Assembly: GCF_003334255.1 (NCBI RefSeq)
Contig: NZ_QOWU01000006.1
DNA length: 64,000 nt
From: Escherichia coli
GTDB lineage: Bacteria > Pseudomonadota > Gammaproteobacteria > Enterobacterales > Enterobacteriaceae
Reading direction: 5' to 3' (one strand)
Position numbers and translations under genes: made by a program. Shown here piece after piece: positions 58,908-59,425 of the stretch. The notes beneath the pieces were generated by a model. That model worked only from the letters and a program-made list of their open reading frames with translations, was not told the origin of the DNA and did not search any database. Each line of letters starts with the position of its first letter. The first letter of the stretch is position 1.

Positions 58908-58936
58908 AATGCCGCGCATGTCGCGGCATTGTTTTC
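58908..58936 (+). terminator. Intrinsic terminator of potFGHI
   Basis: AATGCCGCGcatgtCGCGGCATTGTTTTC: 9-bp stem plus U-tract, ending 1 nt before the ybjO ATG. Confidence 0.85.
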
Positions 58937-59425
58937 ATGGAAGACGAAACGTTGGGATTTTTTAAGAAAACATCTTCATCTCATGCTCGCCTGAATGTGC
59001 CTGCGCTGGTGCAGGTGGCGGCGCTCGCCATTATTATGATCCGTGGCCTCGACGTGCTGATGATTTTCAATACGCTGGGCGTGCGCGGTATTGGCGAGTT
59101 CATTCATCGCAGCGTACAAACCTGGAGTTTAACGCTGGTCTTTTTAAGCAGTCTGGTGCTGGTTTTCATTGAGATCTGGTGTGCGTTTTCACTGGTGAAA
59201 GGGCGTCGCTGGGCGCGCTGGCTATATCTGCTGACACAAATCACCGCCGCAAGTTACTTGTGGGCGGCTTCGCTGGGGTACGGTTATCCGGAGCTGTTCA
59301 GCATTCCCGGTGAATCAAAACGTGAAATCTTCCATAGCCTGATGCTGCAGAAGCTGCCGGATATGCTCATCCTGATGCTGCTGTTCGTTCCCTCGACCAG
59401 TCGGCGGTTCTTCCAGTTGCAATAA
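58937..59425 (+). CDS. ybjO: Inner membrane protein YbjO
   Basis: 162 aa with predicted TM helices; start codon abuts the potI terminator, so the exact start is uncertain. Confidence 0.8.
   Translation: MEDETLGFFKKTSSSHARLNVPALVQVAALAIIMIRGLDVLMIFNTLGVRGIGEFIHRSVQTWSLTLVFLSSLVLVFIEIWCAFSLVKGRRWARWLYLLTQITAASYLWAASLGYGYPELFSIPGESKREIFHSLMLQKLPDMLILMLLFVPSTSRRFFQLQ

Follow-up and report, generated by a model that had tools for sequence, protein, structure and literature searches.

Promoter, terminator-like hairpin and UUG start codon at the potI–ybjO operon boundary of Escherichia coli

The potI–ybjO junction and its hairpin

The window analysed here, i.e. the whole stretch of 64,000 nucleotides of Escherichia coli DNA (RefSeq assembly GCF_003334255.1, contig NZ_QOWU01000006.1), carries the genes potI, ybjO and rlmC around 58.9 kb, where it is 100% identical to the potI–ybjO–rlmC region of E. 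coli K-12 MG1655. The potI–ybjO region is present at an identity of at least 95% in 5,419 of the 5,426 complete E. coli genomes. The genes are as follows.

58032–58877, + strand: potI coding sequence, the last gene of potFGHI (RefSeq annotation of the identical MG1655 region; ORF list), with its stop codon TGA at 58875–58877
58937–59425, + strand: ybjO as annotated by RefSeq/PGAP ('YbjO family protein', 162 aa), from the ATG at 58937 in MG1655
58952–59425, + strand: ybjO coding sequence as revised here, 157 codons, a PF10767/DUF2593 inner-membrane protein (ORF list, orthologue annotations)
59466–60593: rlmC (RefSeq annotation)

The ybjO locus was taken from 80 species-level Enterobacteriaceae genomes and the potI–ybjO junction was extracted; start sites were counted over 76 species loci, and an alignment of 37 diverse Enterobacteriaceae sequences served for covariation analysis and consensus folding. 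Published U00096.2 coordinates were converted to window positions with the TetRP-mapped TTG of ybjO as anchor (897227 = window 58952). A 44-aa ORF on the minus strand (58804–58938), which begins opposite the junction of T-run and ATG and reaches into the 3' end of potI in antisense orientation, was dismissed as unsupported and is probably a chance ORF.

Two features occupy the second half of the spacer between potI and the annotated ybjO.

58908–58930, + strand: putative terminator hairpin with a 9-bp stem and a 5-nt loop (sequence, fold energy and covariation), extendable to 58906–58932
58931–58936, + strand: U-tract GTTTTC, a T-run that follows the stem in all loci

The hairpin begins 31 nt past the stop codon of potI and consists of the 5' arm AATGCCGCG (58908–58916), the loop CATGT (58917–58921) and the 3' arm CGCGGCATT (58922–58930), with six G–C pairs among the 9 bp. 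A sequence-only reading of this DNA had described a hairpin and GTTTTC directly adjoining the annotated ybjO ATG at 58937, and the sequence is exactly so. The fold energy is −13.3 kcal/mol, or −15.7 kcal/mol with the two extra pairs (58906–58932); taken as a single sequence, the fold is not statistically striking (z = −1.67 in an 83-nt context). The U-tract (GUUUUC) is short, with four consecutive U; when the terminal UU of the stem is included it becomes AUUGUUUUC, with six U in nine nucleotides. The hairpin was missed by a simple terminator scan, which requires at least 5 T in 8. Our own reading of this missed call, as distinct from the tool output, is that the stem can extend into the T-run, after which fewer than 5 T remain.

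A hairpin followed by a T-run is found at the potI–ybjO junction in every genus, with differing stem sequences: AATGCCGCG in Escherichia, GTGCCGCG in Enterobacter and Lelliottia, GGCGCAGC in the C. freundii group, GGTTCCCTG in Pseudocitrobacter, GCCTCTCCC in Pluralibacter, GGCGCCGC in Klebsiella and GGCGTCGCG in Raoultella, among others. The T-run after the stem comprises 3–6 T in every locus, and three of its columns are T in all or nearly all sequences. RNAalifold recovers the 9-pair stem from the 37-sequence alignment, with 95.7% of cells paired and compensatory, both-sided changes in all nine stem pairs (48 such cells). None of 500 shuffles reached any of the observed values, and partners slid by 1–3 columns paired in only 26–59% of cells. 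This covariation shows that the hairpin structure is under selection. Because a GC-rich stem and a conserved T-run stand so soon after the last potFGHI stop codon, they bear the signature of a canonical intrinsic terminator, and we infer that the hairpin and U-run terminate potFGHI transcription. The accessible part of the Term-seq supplement of Adams 2021 (PMC7815308) holds no entry for ybjO or potI and no mapped 3' end, and the same applies to the accessible parts of the SMRT-Cappable-seq and TRAINSPOTTER supplements; low expression could explain the missing 3' ends in these published sets. A literature search returned nothing relevant on a potFGHI terminator or on a potI-derived Hfq-bound RNA.

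Transcription start sites and the ybjO promoter

The promoter elements and the transcription start sites (TSSs) discussed below are listed here. All TSSs come from a Cappable-seq table for MG1655 grown in M9-glucose to mid-log phase, i.e. one dataset and one growth condition; enrichment values are log2.

54589, + strand: TSS (U00096.2 892864) upstream of potF; RRS 27.1, enrichment 8.7
58851–58868, + strand: invariant block GAT ATC CAG CGT GCA AGA in the last potI codons, −45 to −28 of the ybjO TSS
58884–58889, + strand: −10 hexamer TAAAAT of the ybjO promoter, just past the potI stop codon, with the TSS 7 nt downstream
58896, + strand: ybjO TSS (A; U00096.2 897171); RRS 19.68, enrichment 4.48
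58933, + strand: weak TSS (U00096.2 897208) inside the U-run; RRS 2.7, enrichment 2.6
59442, + strand: TSS (U00096.2 897717) before rlmC; RRS 5.96, enrichment 6.56

A start at about 58896 was predicted from the −10 box before the table was consulted, and the Cappable-seq match lies at exactly 58896, so that a 5'-triphosphate end at this position is backed by published data. In this dataset, 897171 is the strongest + strand TSS between potF and rlmC, and its RRS is comparable with that of the potF TSS (19.7 vs 27.1). The −10 box occurs in all genera and follows the pattern TAnnAT among the 37 diverse sequences: T1, A2, A5 and T6 are invariant, and variants include TATTAT, TACTAT and TAGAAT.

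The last potI codons are also constrained. The codons GAT, ATC, CGT and GCA are fixed in all 76 unique sequences and the rare AGA is present in 73 of 76, while neighbouring Arg, Ala and Val codons of potI vary among three or four synonymous codons. Invariance at these synonymous sites implies a second constraint across −45 to −28, beyond that on the protein. Within the block, the hexamer GTGCAA (58861–58866) matches TTGACA at three of six positions with a 17-bp spacer to the −10 box, and may act as the −35 element of the ybjO promoter. A promoter scan called no promoter at this site. Promoters of sigma-54 or other alternative sigma factors were checked by eye, and no −24/−12 spacing fits. In sum, ybjO has its own sigma-70-type promoter, with a putative −35 region in the last potI codons and the −10 box in the spacer. 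The sequence-only reading had proposed that ybjO might have its own promoter inside potI. This is half borne out: the promoter exists, with its TSS at 58896 and a putative −35 region within potI, but the −10 box lies in the spacer and the hairpin is not bypassed. Separately, the GATATC at −45 to −40, beyond the −35 context, could be an activator or UP-like site.

Three further observations concern the neighbouring transcripts. The 40-nt ybjO–rlmC spacer holds a perfect TATAAT (59430–59435) with the TSS at 59442 lying 7 nt downstream. This match provides an independent check of the coordinate mapping, and an own promoter of rlmC implies that ybjO and rlmC do not form a simple two-gene operon. 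The potF TSS (54589) is 143 nt upstream of the potF ATG (54732). Weaker + strand TSSs occur inside potF, at 893408 and 893442.

The ybjO start codon

Two candidate start codons lie 15 nt apart, with one Shine-Dalgarno (SD) sequence between them.

58937–58939, + strand: annotated ybjO ATG, not a conserved start, overlapping the first G of the SD sequence
58939–58943, + strand: SD sequence GGAAG for the UUG start, with an 8-nt spacer; conserved in orthologues
58952–58954, + strand: conserved ybjO start codon TTG, start-competent in 76/76 loci and called by TetRP

The triplet aligned with the E. coli ATG is AGG in 37 loci, ATG in 31 and ACG in 8, and six of the 31 ATGs are out of frame with ybjO (in Pluralibacter, Superficieibacter, R. 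terrigena and Enterobacteriaceae sp. 89). The codon at the position of 58952 is TTG in 68 loci and GTG in 8, i.e. start-competent in all 76. After the T-run, almost every locus reads C-A-N-GGAAG and then, 6–9 nt further on, TTG or GTG followed by GGATT; in Kosakonia and Phytobacter a purine block GGAA(A/C/T) follows CACAG. The SD sequence is present in all 76 loci, as GGAAG or, in a few, GGAA. The spacer from the SD sequence to the start codon measures 6, 7, 8 or 9 nt, and thus differs by indels that are not multiples of three. An in-frame TAA stands 6 nt before the TTG/GTG in five loci, namely three of Trabulsiella, one of Raoultella terrigena and one of Silvania confinis. Judged by these spacer lengths, in-frame TAA codons and out-of-frame ATGs across the 76 loci, the sequence upstream of TTG 58952 is not evolving as coding sequence. 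Annotated orthologue lengths differ accordingly: they are given as 157, 159, 162, 165 and 170–178 aa, and the longest run through the hairpin itself. For many orthologues (Salmonella, Yokenella and several Citrobacter), the existing annotation is already the 157-aa form, beginning M-G-F.

Published initiation mapping agrees with this comparison. The accessible part of the TetRP table (Nakahigashi 2016, PMC4909307) places the ybjO start at U00096.2 897227, with an offset of +15, a TTG codon and the N-terminus MGFFKK..., and classes it as '1. new site'. According to the same paper, the signal was mainly at the new site for eight of nine new TTG sites. Its lacZ comparison of the ybjO ATG and TTG gave activities that were too low in all constructs to be informative (PMC4909307). 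Together, the ribosome profiling and comparative data indicate that ybjO starts at UUG 58952, 15 nt downstream of the annotated ATG, and that the ATG is not the main start. The annotated AUG would then be a lineage-specific coincidence that arises from the variable middle base of C-A-N-GGAAG.

Alternatively, the annotated AUG could be genuine in Escherichia, alone or beside the UUG, and yield a 162-aa form from a near-leaderless transcript or after melting of the hairpin. An in-frame ATG is shared by every Escherichia locus and by 25 of the 76 species loci, the AUG is predicted to be 76% unpaired, the weak TSS at 58933 would give a 4-nt leader, and the low lacZ activities do not separate the two codons. 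Against this, (i) TetRP assigns the start to the TTG; (ii) the AUG lacks an SD sequence, and its −20 to −1 region belongs to a stem of about −14 kcal/mol; (iii) 45 loci carry AGG or ACG in place of the ATG, and in six others the ATG is out of frame; (iv) both substitutions seen within Escherichia in codons 2–5 would be non-synonymous (GAC>GAG in L005 and ACG>CCG in L006); and (v) the signal at 58933 is weak (RRS 2.7, enrichment 2.6) and no −10-like hexamer is seen upstream of it. On this balance we regard a genuine AUG start as unlikely. The 58933 signal, 4 nt ahead of the annotated ATG, may reflect noise or a minor transcript that is nearly leaderless. The main ybjO mRNA is not leaderless: its TSS precedes the AUG by 41 nt and the UUG by 56 nt.

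Translation from the UUG would rely on a weak SD sequence. The anti-SD duplex is predicted at −3.3 kcal/mol for GGAAG, vs −1.7 kcal/mol for the best match upstream of the ATG; no SD sequence occurs in positions −20 to −1 of the annotated ATG, which belong to the 3' arm of the hairpin. The SD sequence begins 3 nt past the U-run and shares its first base with the last base of the annotated ATG. The sequence-only reading had held that any SD sequence would lie inside the terminator stem, and had named a start further downstream as one way out. The first point applies to the annotated ATG but fails for the UUG, whose SD sequence is past the terminator; the second is borne out by the TTG/GTG conserved 15 nt on, by its SD sequence outside the stem and by the published TetRP mapping.

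The U-run GUUUUC and the SD region (GAAGAC) are complementary, and a 6-bp mini-hairpin (58931–58945, −2.0 kcal/mol) with the AUG as its loop is predicted; it appears in the consensus fold with one-sided (wobble) changes only. Through this pairing with the U-run, the SD sequence is predicted to be 26% unpaired in the ybjO transcript, and it is predicted to be 7% unpaired in potI read-through RNA. A long-range pairing that would mask the UUG, in which CCAAC (58893–97) or CCUGGC (58897–902) pairs with GUUGG (58951–55), occurs in minimum-free-energy folds. It was rejected: part of its 5' partner precedes the TSS, the pairing is missing in Enterobacter (11-nt deletion) and it is absent from the consensus fold.

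A reading of the operon boundary

The potI–ybjO junction is an operon boundary of ordinary architecture, packed into about 100 bp, plus a start-codon misannotation. The explanation that we consider probable combines a terminator hairpin, a UUG start with a weak SD sequence and an own ybjO promoter upstream of the hairpin. The ybjO 5' UTR measures 56 nt to the UUG. Since ybjO transcription starts 12 nt ahead of the hairpin, transcripts of both the potF and the ybjO promoters must pass the terminator. We propose that potFGHI transcripts end at about 58933–58936 by means of the hairpin and U-run, and that the terminator would thereby insulate ybjO–rlmC from potFGHI regulation. It would probably also act as a constitutive attenuator of the ybjO promoter and lower its productive output. 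On RNA that passes the hairpin, ybjO would be translated from UUG 58952 by way of the weak SD GGAAG (58939–58943), and this read-through fraction would be poorly translated. With its end 22 nt before the UUG, the hairpin stays clear of the region that the 30S subunit must occupy and so poses no refolding problem; it would border the ribosome footprint on the 5' side and would not have to melt. The earlier proposal that ybjO is translated only from read-through transcripts after the hairpin refolds thus holds only trivially: transcripts of both promoters do have to pass the hairpin, but the 22-nt gap makes refolding unnecessary. The weak SD sequence, the UUG start and the predicted pairing of the SD sequence with the U-tract would keep YbjO synthesis low. 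A promoter that fires straight into a terminator looks wasteful, and we count this against our explanation.

Could the hairpin instead be kept mainly as a 5'-UTR element of ybjO, as protection against RNase E/RppH or in a translational role, with the U-run as an S1-binding enhancer? The hairpin is indeed within the ybjO primary transcript in E. coli, by −10 spacing it would lie 1–3 nt from the predicted 5' end in Enterobacter, the U-run adjoins the weak SD sequence, and the hairpin persists in two loci (L077 and L047) in which insertions of 110–190 bp part it from potI. However, a GC-rich stem with a conserved T-run that directly follows the final gene of an operon is what marks a canonical terminator, and the length of the unpaired 5' segment differs among genera (about 1 to about 24 nt), so that the stem is not consistently 5'-terminal. 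We find this explanation unlikely as the main one, and the two roles are not mutually exclusive: the hairpin could also stabilize the 5' end of ybjO mRNA, which is compatible with a terminator role.

Another possibility is that promoter and terminator together act as a regulated attenuator or as a dedicated gene for a ~40-nt RNA (from 58896 to about 58935), and that a factor or metabolite governs read-through into ybjO–rlmC. A promoter-proximal terminator conserved across the family and a TSS strength comparable with that of the potF promoter are in line with this. Yet no conserved antiterminator pairing was detected, since RNAalifold gives only the terminator and the weak U-tract:SD stem with its one-sided changes; there is no leader peptide; and the 12-nt 5' segment is conserved in neither sequence nor length (11 nt are missing in Enterobacter), which leaves no seed for a small RNA. 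An Rfam scan yielded no family at threshold (the best was asX2, E = 0.38, well below the gathering score). With neither an aptamer at the Rfam threshold nor an alternative structure in the consensus fold, the locus does not qualify as a riboswitch or regulated attenuator, and we hold this possibility to be very unlikely. It also seems improbable that the order promoter–terminator–SD is a deliberate multi-use module, in which the hairpin would terminate potFGHI, tune the ybjO promoter (possibly conditionally) and cap the mRNA, the U-run would bind S1 or mask the SD sequence, and an abundant RNA of ~40 nt would be a by-product.

All parts of the preferred reading, i.e. terminator, UUG start and embedded promoter, have known counterparts. 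The hairpin resembles Rho-independent operon-end terminators in its 9-bp GC-rich stem, 5-nt loop, directly 3' U-run, position 31 nt past the stop codon and compensatory changes; it differs in that the U-run is short (4 U), the next SD sequence follows after 3 nt and the ybjO promoter directs transcription into it from a start 12 nt before the stem. Promoters embedded in the 3' end of an upstream gene can drive 3'-UTR sRNAs (e.g. MicL and DapZ). As in those cases, the (here putative) −35 region lies inside the upstream coding sequence, synonymous-site conservation is imposed on it and the terminator hairpin of the upstream operon is shared; by contrast, the product here is a downstream mRNA (ybjO, perhaps rlmC) and not an sRNA, and a conserved seed is lacking. 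The start codon belongs with other TetRP-remapped UUG starts (e.g. ftsH, potA, rfaQ and yedI; Nakahigashi 2016, PMC4909307): ybjO is in the same table, and its AUG is likewise replaced by a nearby in-frame UUG with a better SD sequence. It differs from them in that its reporter expression was too low, the case is closed by comparative evidence and RefSeq still carries the ATG. Finally, like the 5'-UTR premature-termination elements and attenuators surveyed in Adams 2021 (PMC7815308), ybjO has a putative intrinsic terminator between its TSS and start codon, but it shows no sign of an alternative structure, a leader peptide or a ligand-binding fold.

The start-site call and the TSS were known before, both from public supplementary tables. 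What this analysis adds is that comparison across species proves the UUG start, that covariation supports the hairpin, and that promoter, terminator and ribosome-binding site are recognized as one conserved module of ~75 nt. General understanding is unchanged and all parts are of known kinds; the practical value lies in the annotation fix. The ybjO start should be corrected in E. coli annotations to 157 aa from the UUG rather than 162 aa from the AUG, which bears on tagging, deletion design and structure prediction of this uncharacterized membrane protein. Expression of ybjO and, separately, of rlmC is not simply potFGHI read-through, as each has its own promoter. The locus is also a clean example of how comparative evidence from frame-breaking indels can settle a start codon where reporter assays could not, and its conserved promoter-into-terminator layout offers a small, testable case of signal sharing at tightly packed operon boundaries.

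The two loci with insertions deserve a brief description. In Superficieibacter sp. 1612_C1 (L077, 1322–1458), an insertion of ~110 nt between the TAAAAT box and the hairpin lengthens the predicted ybjO leader, and the hairpin, T-run, SD sequence and TTG are all kept. In Klebsiella spallanzanii (L047, 1248–1452), a repeat of ~190 bp with inverted ends (TATACCC.../...GGGTATA), which we take to have an ERIC-like core, is inserted exactly at the ybjO −10 box; its right junction recreates TATAAT/TAATAT and leaves the distance to the hairpin unchanged.
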